Below, piece by piece: positions 4,522 through 52,100 of a stretch of 64,000 nt of DNA; position 1 is the first letter of the stretch, and each line of letters starts with the position of its first letter. The DNA is taken from positions 800,001-864,000 of the forward strand of contig OZ250186.1 in assembly GCA_965238275.1 (NCBI GenBank), given 5' to 3'. The notes under the pieces were generated by a model. That model had not been told where the DNA came from, made no database searches, and worked only from the letters and a program-made list of their open reading frames with translations. The stretch is from Nitrosopumilus sp. (GTDB taxonomy: Archaea > Thermoproteota > Nitrososphaeria > Nitrososphaerales > Nitrosopumilaceae). A program made the translations under genes and the position numbers.

Positions 4522-4951
4522 GCTCCACACATGCCTGCTGCATGCATCAATCCAAGCCCGGCAAAATCAGACAGGCTAGGACATCGCCTCACGGACACGA
4601 CCTCCATGTGGTGCCGTTGCCGACCCATATATCAGGGAGCAAATCCCGATATTTCATCATCAAGTTTCCCCTGAAACCCCCATCTGGCGGACCATTCCTG
4701 TAAAACAGTGTGCGTTCACGTCCCCCCTTACCAATTCCACGCTAGCTGGGATGTCATACATGGGCATGTGATTCTGACTCCATTATGGAAGCATCCATCA
4801 GAAGACATGCCAGTGTGTGAAAATGCATGGCAAGAATAAGATGCCATCCTGCAGACATGCCTGGGGCTTTTTGTGGCATGTTCTGCAACGTGTCCTGTCT
4901 AAACCAAAATGGTGCGGCAACAACCCGGATCTGCTGGATGTCGTGGCGCGG

Positions 4952-7585: not shown

Positions 7586-7930
7586 GTGTTGAACTCTCCA
7601 GACGGAACCTGTCAGAAGATGGTATGTCTGGAGAACCGCACTTTTTCTTTATTGATTCAACGATTCGAGAACGGATGTTCCGTATTTATCAGCGAGGGAC
7701 CGGCCCGGATAGGATCCATGACTGCGTCCCTGGCAGGCGGGCCGGTGCCGGTGACCATTACCATCATTCCATCAAAGACCGAGTCCCTCTTCCTGAAGCT
7801 TGCAGCAGAGCGCCTCAGTACGCGGATGCGGGGCATTGCGCTTGTCTCGGTGTTTGTACAAAGGGAGCTGGGATCAGATACTGCCAAGGCCCTGATGAGC
7901 CAGATGATGGAGATGATCGAGGATGACTGA
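7586..7930 (+). CDS. Hypothetical protein, proteasome assembly chaperone PAC4-like
   Basis: Small alpha/beta protein (FENGCSVFISEG...LAAERLSTR...LVSV) overlapping the next gene. Confidence 0.5.
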   Translation: MLNSPDGTCQKMVCLENRTFSLLIQRFENGCSVFISEGPARIGSMTASLAGGPVPVTITIIPSKTESLFLKLAAERLSTRMRGIALVSVFVQRELGSDTAKALMSQMMEMIEDD

Positions 7931-34038: not shown

Positions 34039-36060
34039 TTACAGTTTCAAAAGCATCCTTACAAGCCGATATAAATTGCCAAAACCCTGCTGGCTCATTC
34101 CGGACATGTATTGAAAATCACTTCTTGTAGTGTAGTTTCCGTTTGTCATGCATGCCGCATAAAGCACTGCAGCTGCAAGCCCGCTTGGTCTTCTGCCCAC
34201 GCCTCCGCCCGTATTGGTAATCCTGTCTGCATATTCCAAAGCCAGCTGTGTTGTTTTGGCGTCAGGACGTATCTGTTTAGAGTGTGCCATGATGTATTTT
34301 TTTATTCTTACGTTGGAATCAAAAGGATTTTTCGAATAAACATTAAGACCGATCTTCCTCTTTGCCTTGATGAAAACCTTGTTGTTCTGACTCACCTTTG
34401 TCAAATAATTGGTTCGTTGCAGATAGTCTATCCTGTTTCGAATTGCCTTTTCTGTTATATCTCCTCCCTCAAGCAGTTCTATTATGCCTTCAAGAGGGAT
34501 TGTTTCTTCCCTGATTATTCCCTTTATTTCATTGTCCAGTGCGCGTTTAATCAGTCTCTTATACCATGGCAATGGAATACCTGCCTGTTTCTGAAGGTAA
34601 TCTAGGCTTTCTAAAATCTGACTCGAAAAATTTGTTTTTGTGTCATGTTCCTGTCTGATTATCTCCTCCCATACCGTCTCCCATTCAAACTCTCCTGCCC
34701 GCACTATCAGTCCCATGTCCTGAATGTCGCCTTCCCTTGATGTCACAGCTTTTAGTAAAAACAGGTCTTCGTTGCAAAGAGTGTACAGATTCAGCCTGCC
34801 AAATTTTTCATGCGTGGCCCTTTTGATCATGCCATCCGAGAGTAGCAGCTTTTTTGCGATTCTGGTTTTGAACAGATCCACGCGGCTTCTTGCAGGATGC
34901 TCAAATATGTCAAACGGGTCTGTCCTGTTGTCATCCTCTGTGAAGCGTGATCTGTTTATGGACGCATATCCGATCTTCTCTAGGGCATTGACAAGCTCCT
35001 TTTCATGCTTCAGATCCGTTACAACGATGTCACAGTCCTTTGTTCTTTGCTTGATTCCTTTTTTTCTCATGTTCTCCCCTCCAAACAGATAGGCATCCAC
35101 TGGAACTGCCAGCTTGTCTCCAACCTCCTCAAAAAGCTCTGGATATGCGTTTGGGAGAGTATACAGTTCTGGGGGCATGTTGTACAGTCTTGCCTTCTCT
35201 TCAAATTCGGCCCTTGGCAGAAACAGCCTGTTGTTGGTTACGGGATTGTTTCTAATGTATCCCTCAATGTCCAGCCAGACATCAGATACCGAGTACAGTC
35301 TTGCCGTCGGCCTTATGTCTGCTGTATCCATCCTGCTTCTGTTCCTGAGATAGAACAACACGCACATTGTAGTCTCACTTTTGTTCTGATCTTTTACGGC
35401 CGCCACTATGGCATGAACCAGTACCTCCTCAATCCTTAACGGGGAATCCTGTCTTGCATAGTAGTCGTGCGTGGTATGGTATTCGATGCCGTAATCCCAA
35501 AACATGGAAAATCCAGTAAGCTCTCCCTTGATTTTTTTGCCTTTCTTGGCCTTCTTCAGCACCCTCAGGCTGTCTTGATAAATTATCTCAGAATCGGGTT
35601 CTATTAATGACAGCTCCTTTTCCGTCTTCAAATATTTTGCAAAAAGAAGAACCGTTTCCCTGTCCTGCCTTATGTGAATCCTGTCGTGGTTTCTCCTCAC
35701 TATTCCCACAGAGTCAAAATCCGATACTGCCCGCTGGACTGTTCTCAGGGAGAGCCCTGTGGCATCCTGCATCTCTTTGATCGTTGCAGGCTCTGTCATG
35801 TTGCACAGTACTGCTTCGTTTGAATCGTGAAGCAGGATCTGGACATCATACTGTTCTGCCACTTTGCTGAATAGTGCATATTTTGGATTGTGGTTCGTTC
35901 TCAAAACACCTCTGTCCCTGTTCAGATAGTTTTGGCTGATCAAATCATTTGCCAGCAGGTTGAGGTGGGACTCGCTTATTCCCAGAATCTGCCCTAGTCT
36001 GGACCTTTCTCCTATTCCCTTGCTCACCTGTTTTAGCAGTCGTATTGATGATTTTTTCAT
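34039..36060 (-). CDS. Multidomain wHTH / nucleotidyltransferase (DUF6036/AbiEii-like) / TFIIB cyclin-repeat protein
   Basis: Two N-terminal wHTH-like segments; YLFGGENM...RTKDCDIVV, LFLLKAVTSREGDIQD; C-terminal GRRPSGLAAAVLYAAC. ATG at 36060 follows a TATA-like tract. Confidence 0.75.
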   Translation of the reverse strand: MKKSSIRLLKQVSKGIGERSRLGQILGISESHLNLLANDLISQNYLNRDRGVLRTNHNPKYALFSKVAEQYDVQILLHDSNEAVLCNMTEPATIKEMQDATGLSLRTVQRAVSDFDSVGIVRRNHDRIHIRQDRETVLLFAKYLKTEKELSLIEPDSEIIYQDSLRVLKKAKKGKKIKGELTGFSMFWDYGIEYHTTHDYYARQDSPLRIEEVLVHAIVAAVKDQNKSETTMCVLFYLRNRSRMDTADIRPTARLYSVSDVWLDIEGYIRNNPVTNNRLFLPRAEFEEKARLYNMPPELYTLPNAYPELFEEVGDKLAVPVDAYLFGGENMRKKGIKQRTKDCDIVVTDLKHEKELVNALEKIGYASINRSRFTEDDNRTDPFDIFEHPARSRVDLFKTRIAKKLLLSDGMIKRATHEKFGRLNLYTLCNEDLFLLKAVTSREGDIQDMGLIVRAGEFEWETVWEEIIRQEHDTKTNFSSQILESLDYLQKQAGIPLPWYKRLIKRALDNEIKGIIREETIPLEGIIELLEGGDITEKAIRNRIDYLQRTNYLTKVSQNNKVFIKAKRKIGLNVYSKNPFDSNVRIKKYIMAHSKQIRPDAKTTQLALEYADRITNTGGGVGRRPSGLAAAVLYAACMTNGNYTTRSDFQYMSGMSQQGFGNLYRLVRMLLKL

Positions 36061-36360
36061 TTTCAGTGTCTTAAGATAGCATATCTTAATATATATCCTA
36101 TTCTGTGACACTGAAATATCCATGTGGCTCCAGAATTGACTGAAACCACCGAGCATTCCAACCCCATGCCAACCGTCGTTTGGACTGTGGCCGTATGCAC
36201 AAGGGGAGGGGATCACGCAAACGACATCAATCATTGCTCATGGTAATGATTGCTAGACGACTGCATACGGTGCTGACGCCCTAGATACGGCAGTCCCGAC
36301 TGCCAGTATCCTCAAAACAAAGGCTTATAATCAATATGTACACTTCCTAACAAGGTTTCA

Positions 36361-37791
36361 TTGGAATTCAGAGAGGGGTTGACATTTGACGATGTTCTCC
36401 TAGTTCCCAAATACTCCAACATTACAAGCAGGAGCCAGACTGATCTGACCACCCGGCTGTCCCGCAACATCTCAATCAACATTCCGTTTGTAAGTGCAAA
36501 CATGGACACTGTCACCGAGTCCTCCATGGCAGTGGCCATGGCCCGGGCAGGCGGAATCGGCATCATACACAGGTTCCTGACGATAAGGGAGCAGACAGAC
36601 GAGGTCCTCAAGGTAAAGCGGTCAGGCAGCGTCATAATAGAGAACCCGTACCTGATATCCCAGGACAGATCCGTTCAGGATGCCATGAACTACGCAACAG
36701 AAAAGGATGTATCCGGACTGCTGGTGGTGGACTCTGAGTCCCGACTGGTCGGAATAATGACTGACAGGGATCTGCTGTTTGCCGATCCGCAGAACACCGT
36801 CATGGAGTGCATGACCAAGGACGTCATCTCTGCAAGACCCGGGGTGACCCTTGATGTCGCAAAGGAGATGCTGCACAGGCACAGGATCGAAAAGCTTCCC
36901 ATTATTGACGACTCTGGCAAGGTCATGGGGTTGATTACAAGCAAGGACATTACAAACATTGCAGACTTTCCAAACGCCTCCAAAGACGGCAAGGGCCGTC
37001 CGCTGGTGGGCGCAGCAGTGGGAGTCCGGGGGGACTTTCTGGAAAGAAGCGAGTCCCTGCTGGATGCGGGGGCAGACGTGCTTGTAGTGGACATAGCACA
37101 CGGCCACAGCGAAAACGCACTTAATGCAATCCGCAGCATCAAAAAGGCGTTCCCGGACGGAGAGCTGATTGCAGGAAATGTTGCAACCGCCAATGGCGCC
37201 CGGGATCTTATCCGGGCCGGAGTCGATGCCGTAAAGGTGGGGGTTGGTTCGGGCTCCATATGCATAACCCGCGTAATTACAGGCTCCGGCGTGCCGCAGC
37301 TTACTGCGGTAATGGACTGTGCACAGGTGGGGCGAGACGAGAACATCCCAATAATCTCAGACGGGGGCACGAGAAACTCCGGCGATGCCACCAAGGCACT
37401 GGCATCCGGTGCGTCATCAGTCATGGTGGGAAGCATGCTGGGAGGAACAGACGAATCTCCGGGTACCGTCCTGACAAAGAACGGAAAGCGCTTCAAGGTG
37501 TACCGCGGGATGGCCTCGCTTGCAGCATCCCTGGGACGCAAGTCAAAGGAGACCGGCCAGACATTCATCGACGACGAGATCAACGACTATGTGGCAGAGG
37601 GCGTCGAGGCGATGGTTCCATACAAGGGAACCGTAGTAGACATACTCAAGCAGCTTACAGGCGGGGTGCGCTCCGGCCTGAGCTACTGCGGGGCACACAC
37701 CATACTCCAGATGCAGGCAAATGCCGAGTTCATCAAGATGTCACGGGCCGGATTTGCAGAAAGCCAGCCGCACGATGTCTCACTGATGTGA
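36361..37791 (+). CDS. guaB: IMP dehydrogenase
   Basis: LTFDDVLLVP, SANMDTVTE, CBS pair, GSGSICITR, YRGMAS, EGVE. Confidence 0.97.
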   Translation: MEFREGLTFDDVLLVPKYSNITSRSQTDLTTRLSRNISINIPFVSANMDTVTESSMAVAMARAGGIGIIHRFLTIREQTDEVLKVKRSGSVIIENPYLISQDRSVQDAMNYATEKDVSGLLVVDSESRLVGIMTDRDLLFADPQNTVMECMTKDVISARPGVTLDVAKEMLHRHRIEKLPIIDDSGKVMGLITSKDITNIADFPNASKDGKGRPLVGAAVGVRGDFLERSESLLDAGADVLVVDIAHGHSENALNAIRSIKKAFPDGELIAGNVATANGARDLIRAGVDAVKVGVGSGSICITRVITGSGVPQLTAVMDCAQVGRDENIPIISDGGTRNSGDATKALASGASSVMVGSMLGGTDESPGTVLTKNGKRFKVYRGMASLAASLGRKSKETGQTFIDDEINDYVAEGVEAMVPYKGTVVDILKQLTGGVRSGLSYCGAHTILQMQANAEFIKMSRAGFAESQPHDVSLM

Positions 37792-38050
37792 GATCCTGCA
37801 GGCAAGGATTTTGCGTATGCAGGTTTGGTATGGTGTTGCCTGCCACATTGGGCATAAAGACTCAGATGCACGTACGGACTTGAGAATGTGACCGATGAAA
37901 TACGGTACCGCCAAGATCCTTAATTTTAAAAAAACGTGGTCAACACTGCCTGTCCGTATTGCTTCCAGACCGGCATTGAATACATCATGCAAATTCGTGT
38001 CTGGATGGATAACGCGCATGACGCTGTTTTTTAATATTTTTATACATCCG

Positions 38051-38317
38051 ATGCCGTATACTGTCATGCCACAGGTCAGTACCGCTGATGACATAGAACG
38101 AGAATCAAGGCGGGTCATAGGTGCATTGTACGGCGATGTCAGCGACTTTCGGGTCAACGCAACGTTTCAGATTCCGGAGAAGGGGCCACGGGAGGCATGG
38201 GACGTGCAGGTAAACTTTATGCTCAACTCCCTAAAGTATACCGTCGATCTTGAGATGCAGGAAAAGGACGGCCAAGTAACCAATGCCAGACTAATCGACA
38301 CCATGACACCTCTCTAA
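38051..38317 (+). CDS. Small hypothetical protein (PepSY-like)
   Basis: AWDVQV...YTVDL...DGQV pattern. Start at ATG 38051 or 38066. Confidence 0.55.
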   Translation: MPYTVMPQVSTADDIERESRRVIGALYGDVSDFRVNATFQIPEKGPREAWDVQVNFMLNSLKYTVDLEMQEKDGQVTNARLIDTMTPL

Positions 38318-38336
38318 TTTTTAAAATCTCTCAAGC

Positions 38337-38855
38337 CTATACTGTCAAAATCTTCTTTGCTTCCTTGATCCTTCCAAGCAGGCTGTTGATGTAGGTGTCT
38401 GCAAACCGCTCAAACGTTACATATTCGTTGGCCCTGTCCAAGCTCTTCTGCTTTTTGTACTCTGCTTGCAGCCATTCAAAATCGGACTCCTTGAGGCTGA
38501 TGGCGCAGTTCTGGGAGTCAAACTTTGACTCTATCACGTTGGCGATGAAATAGCTGACAAACTTTGTAAAGCACTTTACCCTGTACTTCTCATAATACTC
38601 CTCCCCAAGCTCCGTATGGTTTGCCTCCAGCCACTGTTGTATATCCGACCTGATGGTCATGGTGTTGTATCGTCCCGAGAGATCAAGCCTGATCCTGTGC
38701 GGCTCCACAGAGTAGTAGCCGCGCCTTACCTCATTCATCATGATGATCAGCGTGCTTGGAAGAAACATTCCGGGATAATTCTTGTCTGTTACATCCTGCA
38801 GTTTTGCAATGATCGCAGGCTTCAGGCCCACGGTGGCATAGCCTTTTCCGGGCAT
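38337..38855 (-). CDS. Hypothetical protein, possible tandem ribbon-helix-helix DNA-binding protein
   Basis: MPGKGYATVGLK, YNTMTIRSD and CAISLKESD each begin a strand-helix-helix unit. Confidence 0.55.
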   Translation of the reverse strand: MPGKGYATVGLKPAIIAKLQDVTDKNYPGMFLPSTLIIMMNEVRRGYYSVEPHRIRLDLSGRYNTMTIRSDIQQWLEANHTELGEEYYEKYRVKCFTKFVSYFIANVIESKFDSQNCAISLKESDFEWLQAEYKKQKSLDRANEYVTFERFADTYINSLLGRIKEAKKILTV

Positions 38856-39003
38856 ACCCAATAGACTGGTCTGATGCTTATATCATTTTCAGATTCCCAT
38901 ACGTATCTGTCCTTGCCAATCCAAATGTGACGTCGCATCCTGTTCGGGTATCGCTCCCCGGCACCATCCATGCTTCTGATTCTGCACCGCAGACGGTTCC
39001 GTA

Positions 39004-39168
39004 CTACTTTTTCTTGAACTCCTTTATCAGCCGGATTGCCACCCACACCGTTCCCATTATCATGGTTCCGACGCCAAGGCCGCTATAGAACGGATCTTCT
39101 CCACCGGTCTGGCTCAGGCCGATCCCCAGTATGATCAAAATGACTGCAAACGCATACTGCTTGTCCAT
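39004..39168 (-). CDS. Small two-TM membrane protein (54 aa)
   Basis: MDKQYAFAVILIILGIGLSQTGGEDPFYSGLGVGTMIMGTVWVAIRLIKEFKKK. Below the ORF-track cutoff. Confidence 0.65.
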   Translation of the reverse strand: MDKQYAFAVILIILGIGLSQTGGEDPFYSGLGVGTMIMGTVWVAIRLIKEFKKK

Positions 39169-39447
39169 GTCTCCCTTGGGGCTGATGAACTAATAAGATT
39201 TTGAAGGCGTTGCGGTACCTGGTCCATGTCGGCCCCGGAATGGGATTTCTGACCATCGGCGATCCGTCATCTGCCCGCAGAATACCGGTTCCCGGATTTG
39301 ATCCGTTTGTGCATCAAAAACGCACAAAAACTCAAAAATCACACAGTTTTTCTAAGAAAATGTACTATACGCATTATTTTTACACACTAAAACGTATTAT
39401 ACCTGAAAATTTCAATATTTATATAATTTCACGTGTATATCTAATGG

Positions 39448-41034
39448 ATGGCAGAGGTTGACGGATTTGGTGCTGCAATTATCGTATTCATCATAATCAC
39501 GCTTGTAGTGGGCGTCCTTGCAGGCAGGCTGGTAAAAAAGAGCGGCAAGAGGCTGATAATTGCAGGCAAGAGTCTGCCGCTGGTCATGGTAGGAACAATG
39601 CTTGCAGCACAGGCAGTGGACGGAAACTCGTCACTGGGAAACATCTCGCTGGTCTTTCAGTTCGGATTCTGGGCCGGGGCCGTCGTTCCGATAGGTTTGG
39701 GAGTGTGCCTGCTGGTGGTTGCCGCATTCTATGCCAAGCCGCTAAACAAGATGTCGATGATCACCCTGCCTGACTTTTACTACAGAAGATTCGGAAACGG
39801 GGCCGAGGGGATATCCGGCGTGCTCATGATTCTCAGTTTTATCATTCTTGTGGCAGGAAATCTGGCTGCCAGCGGGTTCATTCTAGAGGTCGTATTTGGA
39901 ATAGACTATTTCTGGGGCGTGTTGATCTCATCTTTGGTAGTCGTGGCATATACTATAGCCGGGGGACTGTTTGCCTCTGCATACACGAACCTCTTCCAGG
40001 TGTATCTTGCAATAGGCTCGTTCTGGGCAGCATTCCTGTTCTTTGGCGGCGGCTTTTCAGAGGTGCCGTGGGACGTCATATACAACAACGCTCCGCCGGA
40101 GTTCTTGGATCTCTCGGGACTGTATGATATCGCCAACGGGGCCCTGATCAACTGGGGTGCCATACTTGCACTGGGACTTGGAGACATCATCGCACTTGAC
40201 TTCATGGAGAGGGTGTTCTCTGCCAAGAATCCAAAGACTGCAAGGAGGGGCGCCCTCATGGGAGGCGCACTGACACTCTTTACAGTTATTCCTACCAGCA
40301 TGCTGGGAATCGTGGCATTCTACTATCTTCCCGGAGACACACTGCCTGACTTGGCCCTGCCACTGCTTGCCACGGAGTTCATGCCGTTTGCCATAGGGGC
40401 CTCCATACTGATGGGGGTGATCGGGGCATCCATGTCCACTGCAAGCGGGGGGCTGCTGGCCATATCAAGCGTGGTTTCTCGGAACCTGCTACAGAGGATA
40501 ATCCGGCGCAGGTGGCTGGGCAAGCAGGCCTGGAGCGACGGCAAGCTGCTTGTAACCACGCGGATTGTCATTGCCCCCATGATGATAGCCGGCGCCACCC
40601 TGGCATACTTTGTACCGGCACCGGGGGTCTTTCTCGTGCTGGCATTTGATATCGTCTTTGCCGGAGCCTTGGCGCCTCTCACATTCGGACTGTTCTGGAA
40701 GAAGGCAAACATGCCTGCAGCCATTACCTCCCTGCTTGTAGGATCATTCCTGCGGCTGGCGTTCTTCTTCGTAATTCCACTAGAGTACGACGGAATAGGC
40801 TCAATGATACCGCCTGCAGTCTCGTTTGTACTGTTTATAGTGGTCGCACTTGCAACCCAGAACAGGTATCCAGGAAAGGCAAGGCACGACATAAGGGACT
40901 ATGTTCCGCCCGAGGAGGATATCATTGCCGGCGAGGATCTCAAGCACTTTCAGGAGAGCGACGAGTCGCTGTCCGGCGTACAGAACACAGACACGTCGGG
41001 GCCGGACTCTGGCATGGCGCACAAGAACACCTGA
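39448..41034 (+). CDS. Sodium:solute symporter (SSS family)
   Basis: About 13 TMs, ITLPDFYYRRFG, YTIAGGLFASAYT, ASMSTAS, LFWKKAN. Confidence 0.9.
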   Translation: MAEVDGFGAAIIVFIIITLVVGVLAGRLVKKSGKRLIIAGKSLPLVMVGTMLAAQAVDGNSSLGNISLVFQFGFWAGAVVPIGLGVCLLVVAAFYAKPLNKMSMITLPDFYYRRFGNGAEGISGVLMILSFIILVAGNLAASGFILEVVFGIDYFWGVLISSLVVVAYTIAGGLFASAYTNLFQVYLAIGSFWAAFLFFGGGFSEVPWDVIYNNAPPEFLDLSGLYDIANGALINWGAILALGLGDIIALDFMERVFSAKNPKTARRGALMGGALTLFTVIPTSMLGIVAFYYLPGDTLPDLALPLLATEFMPFAIGASILMGVIGASMSTASGGLLAISSVVSRNLLQRIIRRRWLGKQAWSDGKLLVTTRIVIAPMMIAGATLAYFVPAPGVFLVLAFDIVFAGALAPLTFGLFWKKANMPAAITSLLVGSFLRLAFFFVIPLEYDGIGSMIPPAVSFVLFIVVALATQNRYPGKARHDIRDYVPPEEDIIAGEDLKHFQESDESLSGVQNTDTSGPDSGMAHKNT

Positions 41035-41085
41035 GTCCCTCCCTCCCTCCGTATGTTTTAATATTTTATCGATGATGTGGAATAG

Positions 41086-42777
41086 ATGAAGTATCCTGAC
41101 TTGTTGCCTGCGGACCTTGCACGCGTGGGAACCGCAGAATCAAGAAAGCTCAACCTCATAGTGGGCCGGCTGGTAACTGATGCCGTAAAGACGTCTTTGG
41201 GGCCCAGGGGGATGGAGAAGATCTTCACTGACATCATCGGCGAGGACACCATAACCAAGCACGGCGGCGCGTTTCTGCGAAAAGTCGACGTCGAGCATCC
41301 CGTGGCCAAGGCGATAGTGGAAGGCGTCAACACGGTGGATACGCACGTGGGGGACGGAACAGTCTCTGCTGCAATCCTGATAGGCTCCCTGCTCAAAAAG
41401 GCCGACGGGATGCTCGGGATGGGACTGCAGCCTGCCACAATCATCAGGGGGTATGAGCGGGGGCTGGATCTCGCACTGGAGACGCTTGACGAGGTAAAGA
41501 TGGCCCGGGATGCCTCGGACAGACATGTCCTGGAGCAGCTTGCAGCCTCGTGTCTTGACGGAAAGGCCATAACCAGCCTGGTCTCTGATGCACAGAGACT
41601 CCGGCAGATGATAGTTGATGCATGTTGCCATGTGGCCGATCTTCAGAACGGCTCCATTGATGTTGATGACATCAAGATAGAAGAAAAGCTTGGAAACGCA
41701 AACGACATACAGCTGGTCCGGGGAACCGTGATTGACAAGACCATTGACAATGCGGCAATGCCACGGTGCGTTACTGATGCCAGGATACTGCTCCTCAACG
41801 AGCCGCTTGAGACGATGCGCACCAAGACTGACGATGCCATTGAGATAGACTCCCCGGAGCAGATGTCGCGCTTTCTTGAACAGGAGGTCATCGACGTGCG
41901 CAATATGGTACAGAAGATTATTGGTTGCGGGGCCGGCGTGGTCGTGTCCCGAAAGGGGATAAACGACATTGCACAGGAGTGCCTTGCACAGGCCGGAATA
42001 ATCTCGATAAGAAGGGCCAAGTATAATGATCTCTGGTGGCTTGAAAAGGCCACGGGAGCCTCCGTCTGCAAGAGTCTTGATGCAGTGTCCTCCTCGGAAC
42101 TGGGATATGCGCAGAAGGTGCATGAGAGGGTGGTCGGCGACGAGAGGATGGTATTTGTCGAGGGCTGCAGGAACCCGCGCTCGGTGACCATCCTGCTGCG
42201 TTCAAACTCCAAGAGGTATCTTGACGAGTTCCACCGCAGCGCCCTTAACGCGCTGTTCGTACTGAGGGACTTTATCCAGACCCCGTACGTGGTGCCCGGA
42301 TGCGGCTCCATCGAGGCGGTGCTGGCAGACAGGATCAAGGAGCGATCAGTCGGCATAGGGGACAGGAGCCAGATTGCAGTTGCAATGTTTGCAGACGCCC
42401 TGGAGGAGATCCCGCTGACCCTGGCAAGAAACGTCGGCATGGATCCGCTTGACACCCTGGCTGCCCTCAGATCCCACTATGGGGATTCCCACGGCAGATC
42501 CAGATGGTACGGCATAGACTCGGAGAGGAGGTCAGTCTCTGAGATGCCTGGCACGGGGGTGATAGAGCCCCTTGTGGTCAAACAGCAGGTGCTAAAGACT
42601 GCAGCAGAGGTGTCTGCGATGATCCTCAACGTTGATGACATATTCATGAAGGACGAGATTGACAACACGCACTGCCACATAGACGGAACGGTCCATGCGC
42701 ACCATGACGGCGGGAAGGCGCACAACCACTTTGAGCAGGAGGGGTTGGAGCAGAGGCAGATGCACCACTACTACTAG
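41086..42777 (+). CDS. Divergent group II chaperonin with His-rich C-terminal tail
   Basis: SLGPRGMEK, HPVAK, GDGTVS, IPLTLARNVG, ILNVDD; tail HCHIDGTVHAHHDGGKAHNH...MHHYY. Confidence 0.9.
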   Translation: MKYPDLLPADLARVGTAESRKLNLIVGRLVTDAVKTSLGPRGMEKIFTDIIGEDTITKHGGAFLRKVDVEHPVAKAIVEGVNTVDTHVGDGTVSAAILIGSLLKKADGMLGMGLQPATIIRGYERGLDLALETLDEVKMARDASDRHVLEQLAASCLDGKAITSLVSDAQRLRQMIVDACCHVADLQNGSIDVDDIKIEEKLGNANDIQLVRGTVIDKTIDNAAMPRCVTDARILLLNEPLETMRTKTDDAIEIDSPEQMSRFLEQEVIDVRNMVQKIIGCGAGVVVSRKGINDIAQECLAQAGIISIRRAKYNDLWWLEKATGASVCKSLDAVSSSELGYAQKVHERVVGDERMVFVEGCRNPRSVTILLRSNSKRYLDEFHRSALNALFVLRDFIQTPYVVPGCGSIEAVLADRIKERSVGIGDRSQIAVAMFADALEEIPLTLARNVGMDPLDTLAALRSHYGDSHGRSRWYGIDSERRSVSEMPGTGVIEPLVVKQQVLKTAAEVSAMILNVDDIFMKDEIDNTHCHIDGTVHAHHDGGKAHNHFEQEGLEQRQMHHYY

Positions 42778-42808
42778 TACCGTTACATGTCCGCCGCATC
42801 ATGCCATG

Positions 42809-43558
42809 CTAGAGGATGCTGCCTGGAGTAAGTACGCCGTAGATTATGTGCGCCCCTATCGCAAGGCTGAACGCACCTGCCAGATACCTGGCAATCCTCT
42901 GTACGGATCCCGCCCTTGAGGTAAGGGCAAGCGGCAGGCCGATCAGGTTGCTTATCAGGGTCATGCCGATTATGGAGCCGAGTCCGAATATGAGGATGAA
43001 GCTGATCACCATTCCTGCGCTGTCCAGCGTGACTGCAGTCAGGACGACCAGGCTGCCGCTGCCTGCAAGCCCGTGGATCAGCCCTATGATGTACGACTTG
43101 TGGCTGTGCCTGTGATCCGTGTGACTGTGCTCATGAACATGGAATGTTCCGTCATCGTGCCTGTGGGGGTGCCTGTGCCTGAGGCTGAAGAGCCTCCTCC
43201 TGTCCAGTATCGTGACTGCCCCCAGTACGACAAGCATGACCCCCACTGCCGCCTCAAGGCCGGTAAAGACGTTATCCTGAATCTGTATTGCAAGGACGTA
43301 CACCAGCAGCCCCATTATGATCAAAGTCGTCGTGTGTCCTGCGCCCCACAGTATCCCGATTACTGATGACCTGGCTATCCCTTTCCGGATGACATCCCTG
43401 ATCCGCCCACCACCACCACCACCACCTGTTCTGGCCCCGGACACCCTGGTGGCCACTGCTGCGACATGGTCGGATTCGAACGCGTGCTCCAGTCCTATGG
43501 CAAGCCCCAACCCCAGTGCAAGCAGGGGACTGAAATCAAACAGGTTCTCCAGGGTCAT
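42809..43558 (-). CDS. Nickel/cobalt permease (UreH/NiCoT-like)
   Basis: HAFESDHVAAV, WGAGH, His-rich loop, GLIHGLAGSG, FGLGS. Confidence 0.87.
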   Translation of the reverse strand: MTLENLFDFSPLLALGLGLAIGLEHAFESDHVAAVATRVSGARTGGGGGGGRIRDVIRKGIARSSVIGILWGAGHTTTLIIMGLLVYVLAIQIQDNVFTGLEAAVGVMLVVLGAVTILDRRRLFSLRHRHPHRHDDGTFHVHEHSHTDHRHSHKSYIIGLIHGLAGSGSLVVLTAVTLDSAGMVISFILIFGLGSIIGMTLISNLIGLPLALTSRAGSVQRIARYLAGAFSLAIGAHIIYGVLTPGSIL

Positions 43559-43661
43559 GGCACACCAGAACCTGCCTGCCTTGTGTAAATATTACCCATG
43601 CCGGTAATTCCCGTGCATGTGCACGCCGGTACTACTGCCCTGGCTCGAAAACCCGGACACA

Positions 43662-44033
43662 CTATGATCCCCTCAGGACATACCTGCTGATTCTTATCGG
43701 GGAGTCAAGGACCAGCACCGTCTCTGAACTACCAGATGCCATGCGGAATACAAGCCTTCTCATGCTCTCCGGAACGCCGATCATGACATTGTCAGGTGAG
43801 ATGAGATCGCATACCTGCTCCCCTATGTCATCTGCACTCGCTCCTGCTGCGATCTGCCTCATGACGTATGCTGCCATTGCCATGACTGCCTCGTTTATGT
43901 TGATGCGTATGCCTCCCTGAATCTTCCTGTTGATGGCCTTTGCCGACTCTATCACCACATCCCGGTCGTACCCTGAAAAGATGATCATTGGCTGCGTGTC
44001 CGGATCGCCTTGAACCTCTGCGCTGAACCTCAT
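43662..44033 (-). CDS. Urease gamma-subunit-like protein (orphan)
   Basis: GIRININEAV...AG...LISPDNVMIGVPE resembles UreA (GLKLNYPEA...DDVMEGVPE), with a divergent N-terminus. Confidence 0.7.
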   Translation of the reverse strand: MRFSAEVQGDPDTQPMIIFSGYDRDVVIESAKAINRKIQGGIRININEAVMAMAAYVMRQIAAGASADDIGEQVCDLISPDNVMIGVPESMRRLVFRMASGSSETVLVLDSPIRISRYVLRGS

Positions 44034-45157
44034 TGCCTGTCCGGAATCTTTGCACGCGGGCCGTCACTGAAGTGGTATGTGTTGCCCGTTCCCCTGTAGT
44101 CGTTGGGCCTTACAGGACTTCCTTCCTTCAGCCCCCTCTTTGTCAGGGAGAGGCCTGCAAGCAGCTCGACTATGAGCCTCTGGCCAAGTCCGGATGTTAT
44201 TCCTCCGTTGTACGAACTGTTGTCGCTGACATCATACGCAGGTGCGACTTCCACCAGATCCATGGCAAACCTGTCCGGATCAAATGATTTTGAGAGGAGC
44301 CTTACCATCCTCATTCCTTCCCTGGATGTCAGGCCGTTGGGTTCAGGCTCGCCGGTACCCGGGGCGTATGCCGGATCAAACGAGTCAATGTCCCAGCTAA
44401 GATACACTGCGTCGGTTCCGTCATTGGCCCTGTCTGCAATCTCCTTTGCAATCATGTCGATTCCAAGCTCCTCTACGTCCAGCATGGTAAACCACTGAAA
44501 GTCCTGGTCAGACATCCACTTGTACAGGTCCGGTCCCGGCCAGTATCCGCGGGGACCTACCAGGGTGTAGTTCTTTCCCTTCATGCAGCCCATCTCCATT
44601 ATCCGCCGGATGTGCGCGCCATGATCGTACTTGTAGCCTGTGAGCCCCTGCGGTGCGCAGTCTGCGTGGGTATCAAAATGAATCATGCCAATGTTTTTGT
44701 ATTTTTTTGCAAACGCCCTGACATTGGCATATGTAATCGAGTGATCTCCTCCAAGCATTACCGGTATGCCCTCCTCGTCGAGCACCTCCTTGACCTTTTT
44801 TGTCATGCGCTTGTGCGACTCTATGACATCTCCGGGGGAGACATGGACGTCCCCGTAATCCACTGTCCTGAACGTTCCAAACGGATCCGCGCCTGTCTCG
44901 ATGTTGAACCTCTCGTACGGGGGGGACGGAATCGTTGATGCGGCGCGAAGTGCCCTCGGGCCGTACCTTGCCCCGGGACGGATCGTGGTCCCAAAATCAA
45001 ACGGTTCGCCAATAACGGCAACGTCAGGCTTTGCCTGCTTTAGCTCCTCGTGCGTTCTTATCCATGGCAGGTGCAAAAACGTATTGATGCCGACAAACGG
45101 CGCAACATCGGCACCCCTGTAATCATCACCATAAAACTCCATGCCCATAACACCCAA
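44030..45157 (-). CDS. Ureohydrolase (agmatinase/guanidino hydrolase family)
   Basis: PFDFGT..RPGARYGP, GGDHSIT, HFDTHAD, WDIDSFDPAYAPGTG, DLVEVAP. Confidence 0.92.
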   Translation of the reverse strand: MGVMGMEFYGDDYRGADVAPFVGINTFLHLPWIRTHEELKQAKPDVAVIGEPFDFGTTIRPGARYGPRALRAASTIPSPPYERFNIETGADPFGTFRTVDYGDVHVSPGDVIESHKRMTKKVKEVLDEEGIPVMLGGDHSITYANVRAFAKKYKNIGMIHFDTHADCAPQGLTGYKYDHGAHIRRIMEMGCMKGKNYTLVGPRGYWPGPDLYKWMSDQDFQWFTMLDVEELGIDMIAKEIADRANDGTDAVYLSWDIDSFDPAYAPGTGEPEPNGLTSREGMRMVRLLSKSFDPDRFAMDLVEVAPAYDVSDNSSYNGGITSGLGQRLIVELLAGLSLTKRGLKEGSPVRPNDYRGTGNTYHFSDGPRAKIPDRQ

Positions 45158-45297
45158 TCGGTAAATTTGATAATTAAGGATTCTAGGTAAACTACGTATG
45201 CTGTATCATTGCTGATTCATGCGGCGTGGTGGGAGGAATTCCGGAATATGTAATGTACGATTTAACTATAAAAATAATATCTGCCAAAATAACATTG

Positions 45298-46533
45298 ATG
45301 ATAGGTGCCTCCAAGAGTTCGACTGACTACATGAACGAGGGCCTGACTGCCGTATACTATAACGAGTTCAAAAAGGCCGTATCAAAGTTTGACCGGGCAG
45401 TCTCAATTGATCCGGAAAATATCGTGGCGCAGCTTCACAAGGGCATTACGCTTGGCAGGATTGGCCGTCACAAGGATGCCGTGGCATGCTTTGATGCAGT
45501 GCTTGATGCCGATCCCAAGAATCTTGATGCGCTGTACAACCGCGGCCTGTACCTGGGGAGAATGGGGAAGTACGAGGATGCCATACGCTGTCTTGCCGAA
45601 TCCCTCCAAGTCGATCCAGGATTCCTGGACTCCCTGACTGAGACCGGGGCGTGCCTTGGCAGGATGGGAAGAAACACGGAGGCCCTGGAGATGATTGAGC
45701 GTGCGCTGTATATCGATCCGAAATACTCTGCTGCATTATACAACAAGAGCCTGATTCTGGGACGGCTGGGCAGGAAGGCTGAGGCAATGTCACTCCTGCA
45801 GGACGCGATCGAGGAGGATTCCAGACAGTCTGATGCAGTCTATCGGGAGGGACAGAAGCTTACCCGGGAGGGAAAGCACGAGGAGGCGATAAGACTGTAC
45901 ACCCGCGCCCTGGAGATTGACGACAAGAATACCAGGGCACTGGTCGCAAAGGGATGGACTCTTGACTTTGCAGGGTTCTCAAACAAGGACGTATTCGTAT
46001 TCTATGACAAGGCGCTGGAGGCAGACCCGCATTGCACCGATGCCTGGCTGTACAAGGGACTGGTGCTGGACAGGACGGGCATGTATAAGAGGGCAGTCGA
46101 GTGCTTTGATCGCATCTTGGAGTATGATCCGCAAAACATCCGGGCGCTTTACAGCAAGGGCATATCGCTCTTCTCGCTCAAACGCTTTGGGGCTGCGCGG
46201 TTCTACTGCGAGTGCGCCCTGGACGTGGATCCCAAGAACATCCGGGCCGTATGCAGCATGGTGTGGCTTTTGGAGCATGCAAAAAAATACAACGAGGCGC
46301 TGGCCTACTGCGAGCAGGCGCTGAAGATCAATCCGGACTATGTCTATGCCGTAAGCTACAAGGGAAAGTTGCTCATGCTGCTCAAGCGGTACGCCGAGTC
46401 CCTGGAGTGGTACGACAAGACACTGGCCCTTGCGCCTGACAACCAGACTGCAATATACCACAGGAACATGGTTGTTGATGCAATCGAGAAGGCCAAGAGG
46501 GATTCTGCACCCAGAAGGTTCCCAAGACTATAA
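45298..46533 (+). CDS. Tetratricopeptide repeat protein
   Basis: About 11 tandem 34-aa TPRs (ALYNRG...EDAI.C...L..DP). Confidence 0.92.
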   Translation: MIGASKSSTDYMNEGLTAVYYNEFKKAVSKFDRAVSIDPENIVAQLHKGITLGRIGRHKDAVACFDAVLDADPKNLDALYNRGLYLGRMGKYEDAIRCLAESLQVDPGFLDSLTETGACLGRMGRNTEALEMIERALYIDPKYSAALYNKSLILGRLGRKAEAMSLLQDAIEEDSRQSDAVYREGQKLTREGKHEEAIRLYTRALEIDDKNTRALVAKGWTLDFAGFSNKDVFVFYDKALEADPHCTDAWLYKGLVLDRTGMYKRAVECFDRILEYDPQNIRALYSKGISLFSLKRFGAARFYCECALDVDPKNIRAVCSMVWLLEHAKKYNEALAYCEQALKINPDYVYAVSYKGKLLMLLKRYAESLEWYDKTLALAPDNQTAIYHRNMVVDAIEKAKRDSAPRRFPRL

Positions 46534-46616
46534 ACTTCTGCACGGTGCGGATACATGACTCGCCCGGATAACGCCAATGAGACTTTAAATTATAATTCTT
46601 GCAGCTGACTTCGAAA

Positions 46617-46783
46617 TTGGATGTCTTTGATGCTATCGCATTAGCCATTCATGCAAACAATGATCAAGTTACCGGCAAGACAACAACGATGCAGAAGTTG
46701 ATTTATTTTCGTACCAGAATGATTAAAGATTTGGAGACTTAATTATGCCAACCGTTTCTATGGCATTTTATATTTTGGATGAC
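46617..46783 (+). pseudogene. Remnant of a Panacea/SocA(YwgA)-like antitoxin
   Basis: LDVFDAIALAIHAN..VTGKTTTMQKLIYF ends in a stop at 46740; NYANRFYG follows in the next frame. Confidence 0.45.
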
Positions 46784-47194
46784 TAAAGATCCGCGCAGGG
46801 TCCAATATTTCCCAGATGGCATCAAGGAGACTGCCCGGTGTTGGTTGAAAGGCCTCTTCTGATGGCGCACCAAAGATTTACACTGGTTGAGAGCCCCAAC
46901 CTTGCCACCTTCCAGCATGCGTCTCGGATTCAAGACCATAAGGGCTTTCCCCTTTGTGGTTTTATTGGCATTTCTGCATTGGAAACCAAAACAACCGATA
47001 CTGAAATTTTAAGGGCTTTAATCCATCAATCTTTCCAATTCCTGATACTCTCACATAACCCAAAATGATCACCGCGTACATCCAAACCCGGGATATTCCT
47101 GCCCGATACACACGCCGCGTGCCGGCCCAATCCGTCACGCCGGACCGGATCCGTCTCCGCTAATCTTTTAAACTGTATTCTGACCAGTTGAATC

Positions 47195-47665
47195 ATGATC
47201 TCCAAGAGAACCGTCATCGGAATGATAGTCGGATGCATAATAATCGGAATCGGGGCAGCCTCCCTTGTCGTGCACATAGGAACCATCACAGTCAACGAAT
47301 CCTACGGGCTGGTAGTGGGGGATTCGACGCTCTACACGATTCCGGCTCCTGCAGGCACCGCGCAGACCATGCAGATTACCGGAGAGTCCTTTGATCTCAA
47401 ACTGGAGATTCCAGGAGACGACCAGCAGCCCGTCTCCCGCACCTCCTACAAGGACGGGGTGGATTTGAACTGGACCCACATATCTGATGGCCCAAGCATA
47501 CTCCAGATTCAAAACACGGGGGGGACGGATCTTGAGATTAGAGGCATATTGGTTAGAAGTTCGGATCCAATCTGGTTTACATACGATCTCATGGTGATGA
47601 TATCAGGCGTGGTCATAATCGGATTCAGCATGGGCTTTACCATGCGCAAGCCCAAGGGATTCTAG
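47195..47665 (+). CDS. Membrane protein with N- and C-terminal TMs and a central beta domain
   Basis: Hydrophobic termini around a beta-rich core. Confidence 0.7.
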   Translation: MISKRTVIGMIVGCIIIGIGAASLVVHIGTITVNESYGLVVGDSTLYTIPAPAGTAQTMQITGESFDLKLEIPGDDQQPVSRTSYKDGVDLNWTHISDGPSILQIQNTGGTDLEIRGILVRSSDPIWFTYDLMVMISGVVIIGFSMGFTMRKPKGF

Positions 47666-49157: not shown

Positions 49158-52100
49158 TTGTTGAACAGAGCTTGGATCCTGCTGCCTATCCTGACAGCAT
49201 CTGTATTGATAGCCGGATATGATGCCGCATACGGCCTGCTCCCGCCGGCGCCAAGTTCTACCACGTATACCACACATAACGGCATGCTCGTCATAGAGTT
49301 CAGCGAGCCGGTAACCATGATCGACTATTCAAAGATACACATACGCAGTGGCGACACCGGCATCACACTTGCAGACGTGGTAGTGAAAACAAACGATACC
49401 GATACCATAACTGCCACGTTCAACCCCAACCAGAAGGCGACCTTTGAGACCATGATCCTTCCCAGACTGGCAGTGGATCATGCCGCCGTATTAGGACAGA
49501 TTGACACCCCGATTCTGGAGGGAAGACACATCATTACCATACATGACACCAAACCGCCCGGGTTTGTATCTGCTGTATACAATGCAACTGATAAGCAGGT
49601 ACGCATCACGTTTGATGAAAGGATCATCAAACCGGTTGATCGTACAAAACTGCATCTCCGCGAGTCCGGCAACAGCACGGGTGGCATTACGCTTACCTCT
49701 ACCAATATTGTACATTATCACGGAGACACCCTAATTGTTAATCTTAAGTCGCCCCAAAATGCGACATTTGGCGGGTTTGACATGCCACAACTGGACATTG
49801 ATGCCGGCGCCGTGTCTGATGAATCGGGCAATCTGATTGCCGTCGCGCCGGACCAGCGAATCGACACAGACGACGCGATCGCACCGTCGGTGGAATCGGT
49901 GAAATACGATACCAATCTGAGACTGCTGCTCATCACGTTTGACGAGCCGGTAGCGGAACTGGCCTATTCAAAGATGCACATCCGAGATTCCGGCAACAGC
50001 ACCGGCGGCATCACTCTCTCCTACATAGGCCCTCGACACCATATTGCCAATACGGTGTCTGTCTTGCTTGATACGCCCAAGACAGCAACATTCCATGAAA
50101 TGTCTGCCCCCCAGCTGGACGTGGATCCTGGCGCGGTGTCTGATTTCTCTGGAAACGGCATAGCCGCCGCCCAAAACGACATTACAATCGCCATAAGCGA
50201 TACCGTCCGGCCGGTCTTCGAGTCTGCACGTTACAGCACCAGCGATAGTGTCCTGAGCATCACGTTCAGCGAGAACGTGACTGTCGGCGGCTCTCAGAGA
50301 CTGTACATACATGATATCAACTACAATCATACAAACGGCATATCCCTTGGCACAGACGATCTCAGTTTCGCACTAGGCAACGTCGTAAACGCCACACTGA
50401 ATTCGTCCCATATAGATGCCATAGACAGTATGCACGCCCCGCGGCTGCACATCCCTCAGGGTACAGTATATGACGGTTTGGGCAATGGGATAGCACCTGC
50501 TGCGGACTTGGAGATAATCATAGACGATGCCGCACCGCCTGCGCTGGTTCACGTTGAATACTCCACAGATGACGACAAAGTATATCTCACATTCAACATG
50601 CCCGTGGACAATCCGAACCACTCGAAGCTACGCATACACGATTCTGGCACCATTCTCGGCAGCATTCAGTTTAACAACACCATATTCGTACGCACTGAAG
50701 GTGACACCATGACTGCCTATCTTCACGACGCTCAGGAGAAGGCGATAGAATCCATGGCAGCGCCGCAGCTGGACATTGATGCAGCTGCGGTATCTGATGC
50801 TGCCGACGCCTTAAACACGATTCGGCCAGCTGCCAACCTGACCATCAGCATACCTGACACCATTCCCCCAGAACTTGCTTCTGCAACGTACACCACCGGT
50901 GACGGCACGCTGACTGTCACGTTTGACGAGCCGATATCCCTGCTAAACTATGCAAAGATGCACATCCGCGACTTGAGTACCTCCAGCAGCGGCATCAGCC
51001 TTGCCGACGTCGTCTCGATACGACATACCGCCGGTACCGATACCGTGACTGCCACACTCGACTCACTCCAGAGGACCGCCTTTGAGACCATGGAAAGCCA
51101 CATCCTTAGGATAGACGAGTCTGCAGCGTACGACACGGCTGCGGCATACGACATGTCTGCCAACGCCATCCGGGCAAAAATCCTTTTGATCAACGTATTA
51201 GATACTACTCCACCGGCGTTTGTATCATCCACGTATGATGCAGTTCTGAACATGACAACTGTCACGTTTGATGAAAGGATCATCGAACCGGTTGATTATA
51301 CAAAACTGCACATCCGCGACTCCGGCAGCGATACGGGCGGCATTACGCTTATAGATGTCTCGCCGAAAGTGCACCGTATAAATTCCCTCAGTGTTACGCT
51401 TAACGCGTCCCAAAATGACGCATTTGGAAATCTTACTGCACCCCAGCTGGACATTGATGCCGGTGCCGTGTCTGACGAATCAGACAATTCGATTGCCGCC
51501 ACGACAGACCGGCCAATCATCCAAGACAACAGGACCCTGCCGCTTGTGGTATCGGTGGAATACGACACCAATCTGGAAATGCTGAGCATCACGTTTGACG
51601 AGCCGGTACACACGCCGGATTATTCCGGACTGCGCATCCGTGATTCCGGCATCCACACCGGCGGCATTCAGTTTGACGAGATTCCGCGGAGACACCAGGC
51701 AGGCACCATGATGCATGTCATACTAAACGCGAGCTTGGTAGGTGAATTCAACGCAATGTCCGAACCCCGGCTGGCCATCGACCAGGATGCCGTGCGCGAC
51801 TACTCTGACAACGAAATTACCGGCACCATCAAAATCCCAATCACGATAAATGACACCACCCGGCCGTCGGTTGAATATGCCGCATACAAGATGAAACACG
51901 TTGAAGAACCAAAAATCACATCTGCCGTATACCATCCGGGATTCGGCAACATGACGCTCATGTTCAATGAACCAGTAACGGAGCCGGATCTTGCAGACCT
52001 GTACGTCCGCGACTATGTACACTACGTGTCCCTTAACATGTCCCATGACATGTCCAGGCAAGACCCGATAACCAACCAGTCCATTACAGTCTGGTTTGAC

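Follow-up and report, generated by a model that had tools for sequence, protein, structure and literature searches.

A candidate guanidine-utilisation module built around a ureohydrolase outside the GdmH clade in ammonia-oxidising archaea

Genes and shared promoter motif of the module

The window analysed here is a stretch of 64,000 nucleotides from Nitrosopumilus sp. (C1:800001-864000 of a single-contig 2.22-Mb genome with a completeness of 99.9%), and it carries a group of genes centred on a ureohydrolase that is a candidate for guanidine utilisation. An earlier note on this DNA had named five open reading frames (ORFs), namely a sodium:solute symporter (SSS) and a His-tailed chaperonin on the forward strand and a ureohydrolase, a urease-gamma-like protein and a nickel permease on the reverse strand. 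Their coordinates and strands were confirmed, as were the families PF00474, PF00118, PF00547 and PF00491. Together with a conserved 83-aa protein, a ribbon-helix-helix (RHH)-like regulator and a TPR protein, these five genes form an eight-gene module (Table 1). The two convergent units described in the note are present; however, the module reaches past the interval it gave, and this layout is confined to the window's lineage.

Table 1. Features of the module, with positions in the window and occurrence among well-flanked related loci
Feature	Position	Strand	Loci	Remarks
83-aa conserved hypothetical protein, weakly PepSY-like (language-model features)	38066..38317	+	44/44	ATG at 38066
174-aa candidate regulator, tandem RHH-like	38337..38861	-	30/44	divergent from symporter
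Promoter/operator-like motif CGTANTWTACYT	39393..39404	+		5' of symporter, ahead of AT-rich TATA-like box
SSS, candidate guanidinium importer, not Dur3	39448..41034	+	44/44	PF00474
Third thermosome subunit, divergent; candidate for metal buffering or assembly	41086..42777	+	40/44	PF00118; His-rich C-terminal tail at ~42667-42774
NiCoT/UreH-type nickel/cobalt permease-like membrane protein	42809..43558	-	33/44	Atlas 0.96-0.98; His-rich loop
Divergent urease-gamma (UreA) paralogue	43662..44033	-	40/44	PF00547; extra N-terminal segment
Ureohydrolase, candidate non-GdmH guanidine hydrolase	44030..45157	-		PF00491; likely start ATG 45148
Second strict CGTANTWTACYT promoter/operator-like motif	45185..45196	-		5' of hydrolase, ahead of AT-rich TATA-like box
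TPR-repeat protein, usual module member	45226..46533	+	37/44	TPR Pfam matches

Related stretches numbered 241 in a genome scan, and the best 80 were used, with a bias toward close relatives; synteny was counted only where both flanks reached 8 kb, which left 44 loci and excluded 36 of the 80. All five genes of the note stand together in 25 of the 44 loci, far above chance, and the co-occurrence across Nitrososphaerales for which it had proposed a check was borne out. Gene order differs widely among lineages, and since it is shuffled in this way, the genes are kept together and not just inherited as a block. The UreA-like and ureohydrolase genes overlap by 4 bases.

The strict motif has three matches in the whole 2.2-Mb genome, two of which lie directly 5' of the symporter and hydrolase genes. 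On the Nitrosopumilaceae side (counts cover loci L009-L063 only), its looser core was found 5' of the hydrolase gene in 43/52 loci and 5' of the symporter gene in 20/43, and 5' of ureC or ureE in 0 of 18-19. The motif is visible in aligned hydrolase upstream regions and mostly missing from the listed Nitrososphaeraceae upstream regions. On this pattern, both convergent halves are read as co-regulated via a common promoter motif. A scan for sigma-70 promoters and terminators, a method ill-suited to archaea, gave chance-level results. The predicted model of the 174-aa protein (pLDDT 84) contains the strand-helix-helix order twice. None of its Foldseek matches reached E<=0.001; at the top were F relaxosome chains (E 1.6e-3), along with DndE, VirC2 and AvtR, all of which we take to have the RHH fold. 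This protein probably binds the shared motif. The nearest Atlas clusters of the 83-aa protein are hypothetical or PepSY proteins of Nitrososphaerota (0.93-0.94).

The ureohydrolase and its symporter

The predicted model of the ureohydrolase has an arginase fold (pLDDT 86), for which Foldseek places GdmH, PAH, GpuA and MfmAB nearly level. All metal ligands claimed in the note are present, six in number (H139, D162, H164, D166, D256 and D258, numbered from the TTG start); because homologue matches begin at residue 3-4, the ATG at 45148 is the likely start. Guanidinases have been defined by T105 and W313 (PMC11410670). The Thr is kept as T58 at the GdmH T105 site, with TT in 81/81 sequences, when residues are mapped through printed alignments to references and an alignment to plasmid proteins with both Thr and Trp. 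H179 and E303 correspond to H222 and E344 of GdmH, and they are not diagnostic because they are common to most ureohydrolases. Near-invariant in the clade are E270, DHG, (Y/F)WP and an SYNGG insertion; the residue at the E270 site is Thr in SpeB, GbuA and PAH.

A profile of the clade ranks GdmH at the top of the PDB (278 and 262 bits), ahead of GbuA (250). In a 50-row tree, made by a quick method with a weak backbone, in which GdmH is represented by plasmid Thr/Trp proteins with no characterised enzymes and GpuA is not included, the hydrolases of ammonia oxidisers, haloarchaea, Scalindua and Aquificae form one clade with an SH-aLRT of 100; in the first tree, 5 of 158 rows had been dropped as gappy. 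Forced grouping with SpeB (p-AU 0.002) or GbuA (5e-5) was rejected, and with GdmH (0.09) it was not. The phylogeny proposed in the note supports a reading other than a canonical agmatinase; the enzyme misses the NCBIfam cut-offs as well (159 vs 174 and 210 vs 302 bits) and is rejected from the clade of E. coli SpeB. A guanidinobutyrase identity was likewise rejected, on the forced grouping with P. aeruginosa GbuA and on Glu, not Thr, at site 270. A HutG-like formamide-releasing role was considered, as a formamidase adjoins two loci, and it was rejected (143 vs 229 bits for TIGR01227; fmdA in 1/69 haloarchaeal loci). Since the enzyme forms a separate clade, its groupings with SpeB and GbuA are rejected and its Trp site differs, by sequence it belongs to none of the characterised families; it would follow a GdmH-like route without GdmH membership.

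The closest relatives of the symporter provide the main clue to the substrate. The window SSS is 37% identical to a symporter gene in a Rubrobacter riboswitch-GdmH-SSS arrangement and 25% to Dur3 (E 1e-10), and it falls outside the Dur3 clade; a Dur3 urea symporter was rejected on these grounds. A search of 72,556 plasmid records at E<=1e-20 gave nine matches: five in haloarchaea, three close ones in bacteria and a single distant one. All three close bacterial homologues have a guanidine-I riboswitch, a GdmH-type neighbour or both. In Rubrobacter indicoceani (L193), the riboswitch (4588-4698) is followed by a Thr/Trp GdmH-type hydrolase, the SSS, and then formamidase and urease; in Acaryochloris (L194), the riboswitch (7720-7840) stands ahead of an SSS starting at 7932, 92 bases further; and in Nonomuraea, the SSS is divergent from a Thr/Trp GdmH-type gene, with no riboswitch found at that locus. 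Searching the plasmids again with the Rubrobacter SSS as the query gave no extra full-length close member, and scans of viral collections gave no match. A 21-row tree unites the three bacterial symporters with those of the archaea and the Scalindua-type loci in a single clade (100/99), to which Dur3 and the gbuA-operon symporter do not belong. Within this clade, the haloarchaeal and bacterial members group together (100/100) with the members from ammonia-oxidising archaea (AOA) as sister, and long branches meet at the base. D58 and N60 (D58-x-N60), W75 and D251 are invariant throughout.

The haloarchaeal symporters are 55-57% identical to the Rubrobacter SSS, and in these genomes the new hydrolase, as judged from gene neighbourhoods, holds the place that GdmH has in bacteria beside near-orthologous transporters. 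The bacterial operons (L193-L195) are uncharacterised. They share the symporter clade and its invariant residues with the module; however, their partner is a GdmH-type gene or the riboswitch alone, whereas here the symporter is paired with another ureohydrolase clade and a DNA promoter motif. Guanidine is favoured chiefly because near-orthologous symporters sit beside GdmH or its riboswitch in bacteria, which is guilt by association at three loci. The note had held that the substrate could not be read from the sequence; the bacterial neighbourhoods of the transporter point to guanidine. Conversion of some guanidino compound to urea is very probable, and free guanidine itself has about an even chance of being the substrate.

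Several observations weigh against guanidine. The GdmH Trp313 site is occupied by Glu270 (Glu in 80/81 sequences, Gln in 1/81), a single-sequence PDB search puts GbuA slightly ahead of GdmH, and the tree sets the hydrolase outside the GdmH clade (also SH-aLRT 100), beside an uncharacterised RGYWP clade whose member in Rubrobacter radiotolerans lies among polyamine-catabolic genes. There is no Rfam match for a guanidine riboswitch in window positions 37000-47500, no RF00442 in the genome and no guanidine riboswitch in the Scalindua-type or haloarchaeal loci scanned. The transporter case comprises three loci, two of them actinobacterial, and the window SSS is only 35-40% identical to these bacterial three and sister to them with a support of 80/79; given this identity and placement, the specificity of the symporter may have shifted. 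Outside the order, the 69 haloarchaeal loci carry no UreA-like gene or permease (0/69) and a chaperonin in only 1/69, and urease genes lie near the hydrolase in just 3/69. The relatedness of the genomes also makes the co-occurrence p-values too strong.

These points leave room for the same route acting on another substrate, a guanidino acid or amine such as taurocyamine, glycocyamine, guanidinopropionate, guanidinobutyrate, arcaine or agmatine, with Mn or Ni in the centre, the urea being kept and the amine excreted or used. The missing Trp, the top rank of GbuA and the polyamine-type neighbours of the sister clade suit this alternative, and so does the distant plasmid match, which is the next-nearest symporter (27%) and belongs to the gbuA operon of P. 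aeruginosa. It is nevertheless rather unlikely, given that the GbuA and SpeB clades are rejected, that the closest symporters stand in guanidine contexts and that the conserved neighbour families include no aminotransferase or dehydrogenase for the carbon skeleton. In the proposed hydrolysis, Glu270, at the position of the GdmH Trp and the agmatinase Thr, may shut the alkyl-tail channel and pair with the third nitrogen.

Distribution and link to urease

Counts of the module cover 301 Nitrososphaerales genomes with a completeness of 90% or more, including the unpublished G281 (for these counts only); these genomes are kin and not independent, and absence means not found among those searched. 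The hydrolase occurs in 106, ureC in 154, the SSS in 104 and the chaperonin tail in 100, a count from which G047 and G060 were excluded as matching only the generic first 37 residues. Of the hydrolase-positive genomes, 103/106 have the SSS and 100/106 the tailed chaperonin; conversely, the hydrolase is present in 100/100 tail-positive and 103/104 SSS-positive genomes. It is 75-94% identical across the order and was found in 105 of 233 other genomes of the three carrier families. The link to urease is similarly close, with ureC in 101/106 hydrolase-positive genomes and in 34/34 of the window's family; the five genomes lacking it are metagenome-assembled genomes (MAGs) of 60-720 contigs. This nesting in urease-positive genomes agrees with the proposal of the note that released urea or ammonia serves as an energy substrate for an ammonia oxidiser. 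Among the 53 urease genomes without the hydrolase, neither the tail (0/53) nor the symporter (0/53) was found, and the helpers therefore track the hydrolase, not the urease.

The note had found no urease alpha/beta and no UreE/G, which is true of the window; elsewhere in the genome, however, there is a full ure cluster (about C1:208-224 kb) with ureABC, including the true UreA, ureEFGD and three Dur3 copies (ureC at C1:216476, UreG at C1:220151). Beside ureC in this cluster, a gene for a 663-aa Dur3-type symporter and the gene next to it occur in two copies, one on each side of an inserted gene (G000:C1:208149-210655 and 213480-216109). A Dur3 match is missing from 65 of 101 genomes with both hydrolase and urease and from 17 of 53 urease-only genomes, a count blind to UT channels, passive diffusion and MAG gaps. 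Frequent absence in module genomes is what internal production of urea would predict. Two ureC genes of differing score class (~920-940 and 870-890 bits) occur in the Nitrososphaeraceae genomes G124, G112, G082, G139 and G259; in G124, one adjoins the module and the other adjoins Dur3. This suggests that internal and imported urea are handled by different ureases in that genome.

The link to urease could also be taken differently. In NS-delta soil AOA, an SSS that shares a gene cluster with an expressed 'agmatinase (SpeB)' has been read, in the portion of PMC11131427 available, as a urea transporter plus SpeB, and we infer this pair to be that of the module. On that reading, an ordinary agmatinase makes putrescine and urea, the SSS is a low-affinity urea symporter and the remaining genes are urease accessories. 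Databases name the gene agmatinase, urease genes lie inside 28 of the 44 well-flanked loci, a UreA paralogue and a nickel permease would suit urease, and with Dur3 missing from many module genomes the SSS could carry urea. This explanation is nonetheless improbable: agmatinase cut-offs are missed, the SSS has little identity to Dur3, the tailed chaperonin and SSS are missing from every urease-only genome, the promoter motif was not found 5' of the ure genes, and another arginase-family gene, distant from the hydrolase (30% identical), is already encoded in the genome, as are the three Dur3 copies.

A role in polyamine biosynthesis, for instance as a bis(guanidino)homospermidine hydrolase acting with a deoxyhypusine-synthase (DHS) homologue like bacterial SpeY (in the available part of PMC13625781), would accord with the DHS-like genes that flank the module in 16 of the 80 loci. 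In this genome, however, they lie >700 kb away, they occur at 0/69 haloarchaeal loci, and a biosynthetic step needs no importer and has no reason to track urease, which makes this role very improbable. A second DHS-like gene (G000:C1:1955577-1956697) matches as two pieces in different frames and is therefore frameshifted or mis-assembled.

Outside the order, haloarchaea have hydrolase orthologues at 50-59% identity, and source names place others in Thermocrinis, Hydrogenobacter, Thermodesulfovibrio and Ca. Scalindua. The SSS is beside the hydrolase in 30/69 haloarchaeal loci, or in 18/32 of those with at least 4 kb upstream. A PhoU/AbrB-like regulator lies 5' of the hydrolase in 49/69 haloarchaeal loci (e.g. 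L169-L171, L089-L159) and is a candidate guanidino-responsive regulator. At a Scalindua-type locus (L152), the hydrolase is followed by the SSS; this pair, under the names of anammox Ca. Scalindua, falls in another ammonium-dependent energy metabolism.

The hydrolase of the window is 99% identical to the copy of one Nitrosopumilus MAG and 88-94% to those of other Nitrosopumilaceae. Short sponge metatranscriptome contigs (four runs of one study; DNA carry-over is possible) match segments of the symporter, chaperonin and hydrolase genes at >=99% identity, and because of these the organism is probably sponge-associated. The permease, UreA-like, regulator and TPR genes were uncovered in these contigs, which carries no weight either way. 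Since free-living lineages of soil, freshwater and groundwater commonly carry the module, a creatine-type or other host-metabolite substrate, as suggested in the note, is not favoured.

Candidate metal helpers and the proposed route

Three chaperonins are encoded in the genome, and the module copy is the third, divergent thermosome. It passes NF041082 (498 vs 450 bits) and is below TIGR02339 (485 vs 671). Its His-rich tail stands where the two housekeeping subunits have Gly/Met-rich ends, and it is near-invariant across the listed copies, with a mean of 8.8 His in the last 45 residues (51 copies). The GDGT ATP motif is kept, with D90-G-T in 51/51 copies. Two Asp residues of the housekeeping subunits, which we take to be catalytic for ATP hydrolysis, are H59 (36/51) and N388 (33/51) here, with Asp kept in 15 and 16 of 51. 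Six hydrolase-positive genomes gave no match to the tail: three of them are MAGs in many fragments (210-520 contigs), and the others are all the carriers of family f3 (G002, G015, G033). The f3 loci have no chaperonin, and their hydrolase, a long type named Ca. Nitrosomirales, ends in a His-rich extension; the long forms have 4-12 His in the last 70 residues compared with 0-2 in the ordinary forms counted. Since the extension appears on the hydrolase where the tailed chaperonin is missing, the His tract is tied to the hydrolase, and the move of the tail onto the enzyme was probably one evolutionary event.

The note had identified a nickel permease and proposed the chaperonin and the UreA-like protein as substitutes for HypAB. 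The permease is a candidate on the basis of Atlas, which puts the protein with NiCoT/UreH clusters at the scores in Table 1, and on the motif HAx(E/D)xDH in 48/49 copies, but no Pfam or NCBIfam match was obtained. As a further caution for the proposed route, the permease abuts the ure operon in many loci and could serve urease. Near the module in some Nitrososphaeraceae loci, another permease with an RHALDxDH motif replaces the UreH-type gene (L181:11214-12179, L168:13337-14218), which again hints at selection for nickel import. The UreA-like protein scores 28.7 bits for PF00547 (cut-off 23.9) and 29-31 vs 82-123 for NCBIfam UreA models, its profile matches urease gamma 1A5K (E 5.6e-16), and its gene is missing from some loci, e.g. 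L172. As for HypAB, the three carrier families (f1, f3 and f12) gave no HypA match over the cut-off, and the sole HypB-like match in the genome is UreG. This much agrees with a replacement; an obligatory helper role is opposed by the haloarchaeal members, which lack the chaperonin tail and UreA-like protein, and by UreEFGD in the genome.

The chaperonin, UreA-like protein and permease may instead not be loaders of the hydrolase at all; the enzyme would then take Mn, or Ni from UreEFG, and these genes would serve the linked urease or general folding. Haloarchaeal orthologues that manage without all three, the locus without a UreA-like gene, the encoded UreEFGD and a different degenerate chaperonin adjoining the canonical urease of G124 are in its favour, whereas the tracking of the hydrolase by the tailed chaperonin, its absence from urease-only genomes and the His tail that the hydrolase itself bears in genomes without this chaperonin are not. 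This alternative is quite plausible, if somewhat below an even chance. Nickel in the hydrolase centre is probable; service of the His tail to the hydrolase falls only just short of even odds, and a role of the UreA-like protein as a maturation factor of the hydrolase is doubtful.

Degenerate chaperonins were also seen at other loci. One adjoins ureC in G124, within the urease cluster linked to Dur3 (L176:1869-3500), and one with a short His tail lies beside formamidase on Haloarcula pNG700 (L170:4187-5803). Divergent chaperonins next to metallo-amidohydrolases may be a recurring theme.

Taking these results together, we give a probability of roughly 0.55 to the reading that the module imports guanidine or a small guanidine and hydrolyses it to urea, feeding urease and ammonia oxidation. 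In this route, the Na+-coupled symporter would import guanidinium or a small substituted guanidine, and the binuclear ureohydrolase would cleave it to urea and ammonia or an amine. The urease, whose genes are present, would free two more ammonia for ammonia monooxygenase. More tentatively, the centre would probably hold Ni or Ni/Mn, the NiCoT/UreH permease would bring nickel in, and the His-rich tail, on the third thermosome or on the hydrolase, would hold or deliver nickel in genomes without HypA. A broader proposal is more tentative still, namely that nickel guanidinases evolved independently a second time and that this one, paired with an importer that couples guanidine uptake to sodium, is matured without HypAB via a His-rich tail on a dedicated thermosome or on the enzyme, and is encoded in about one third of the sampled Nitrososphaerales and in some haloarchaea, Scalindua and Aquificae.

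The module resembles GdmH (Synechocystis Sll1077, PDB 7ESR/7OI1) and the guanidinase of N. inopinata (9FEK) in the arginase fold, the six ligands, the Thr/His/Glu sites and the pairing of a transporter with a hydrolase that feeds urease. The comammox enzyme is also described without neighbouring Ni chaperones in the available part of PMC11410670. Unlike the GdmH systems, the module is archaeal, has Glu for Trp313, a separate clade and an SSS importer instead of ABC or APC carriers, lacks the riboswitch and GhaA/GhaB, and adds the chaperonin, UreA paralogue, TPR and RHH-like genes. Nickel-dependent ureohydrolase operons can include a nickel importer (PMC10927577, in part), as with MfmAB/MefH/DmgH, of which DmgH clusters with urease; however, those enzymes are heteromeric with one inactive subunit, need HypAB, are ~30% identical and belong to a different clade. 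GbuA, GpuA and SpeB share the fold, ligands and HG motif, and the gbuA operon has an SSS too, whereas they have Thr at the E270 site and the GbuA and SpeB clades are rejected (GpuA is not in the tree). Mycobacterial GroEL1 and H. pylori HspA are, in the portions of the sources available, likewise chaperonin-family proteins with a His-rich C-terminus and a link to metal handling; here, in contrast, the tail belongs to a group II thermosome paralogue that accompanies a single enzyme and whose ATP-site Asp residues are altered.

In the open-access literature, we found no paper on the module or on archaeal guanidine use. The available text of PMC11410670 gives urea and cyanate, and guanidine for comammox, as the only confirmed alternative ammonia sources of ammonia oxidisers. 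It classes guanidinases by Thr and Trp, reports no guanidine genes in AOA genomes from a screen in which Trp313 was a requirement, and covers tests on five strains of ammonia-oxidising bacteria and N. inopinata; it also reports acetylene-sensitive nitrification of guanidine in soil that it was unable to attribute to comammox, and its supplement file 7 gives, for a single Nitrosopumilaceae MAG, two matches to mini-ykkC (guanidine-II). Within the available portions, PMC12625717 describes no guanidine genes in its nitrifier MAGs, and PMC10753782 gives 2-3 speB copies in most AOA without telling them apart. Within the accessible text of PMC6790972, PMC4084955, 10.1101/175141, PMC7785015, PMC10927577, PMC12704784, PMC12186494, PMC11399263, PMC8390497 and PMC13625781, the papers that deal with guanidine transport describe ABC and APC carriers, with no symporter by term search.

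Two further ORFs of the window lie outside the module. A lower-GC ORF of 731 aa (34039-36234, reverse strand) contains, by eye, helix-turn-helix-like, nucleotidyltransferase-like and C-terminal cyclin/TFIIB-like stretches, and a secreted-looking repeat protein of 1579 aa (49158-53897, forward strand) has a GNGDGGSS tandem array.

The proposed module accounts for an 'agmatinase' gene that is strongly conserved across the order and nearly always accompanied by urease. AOA contribute a major share of soil and ocean nitrification. If the proposal is true, guanidine would be their third alternative ammonia source, after urea and cyanate, and the view of AOA as unable to use guanidine would be overturned, with the module as a concrete archaeal candidate. 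Metal delivery by a paralogue of the thermosome would, likewise if true, be a new maturation route.

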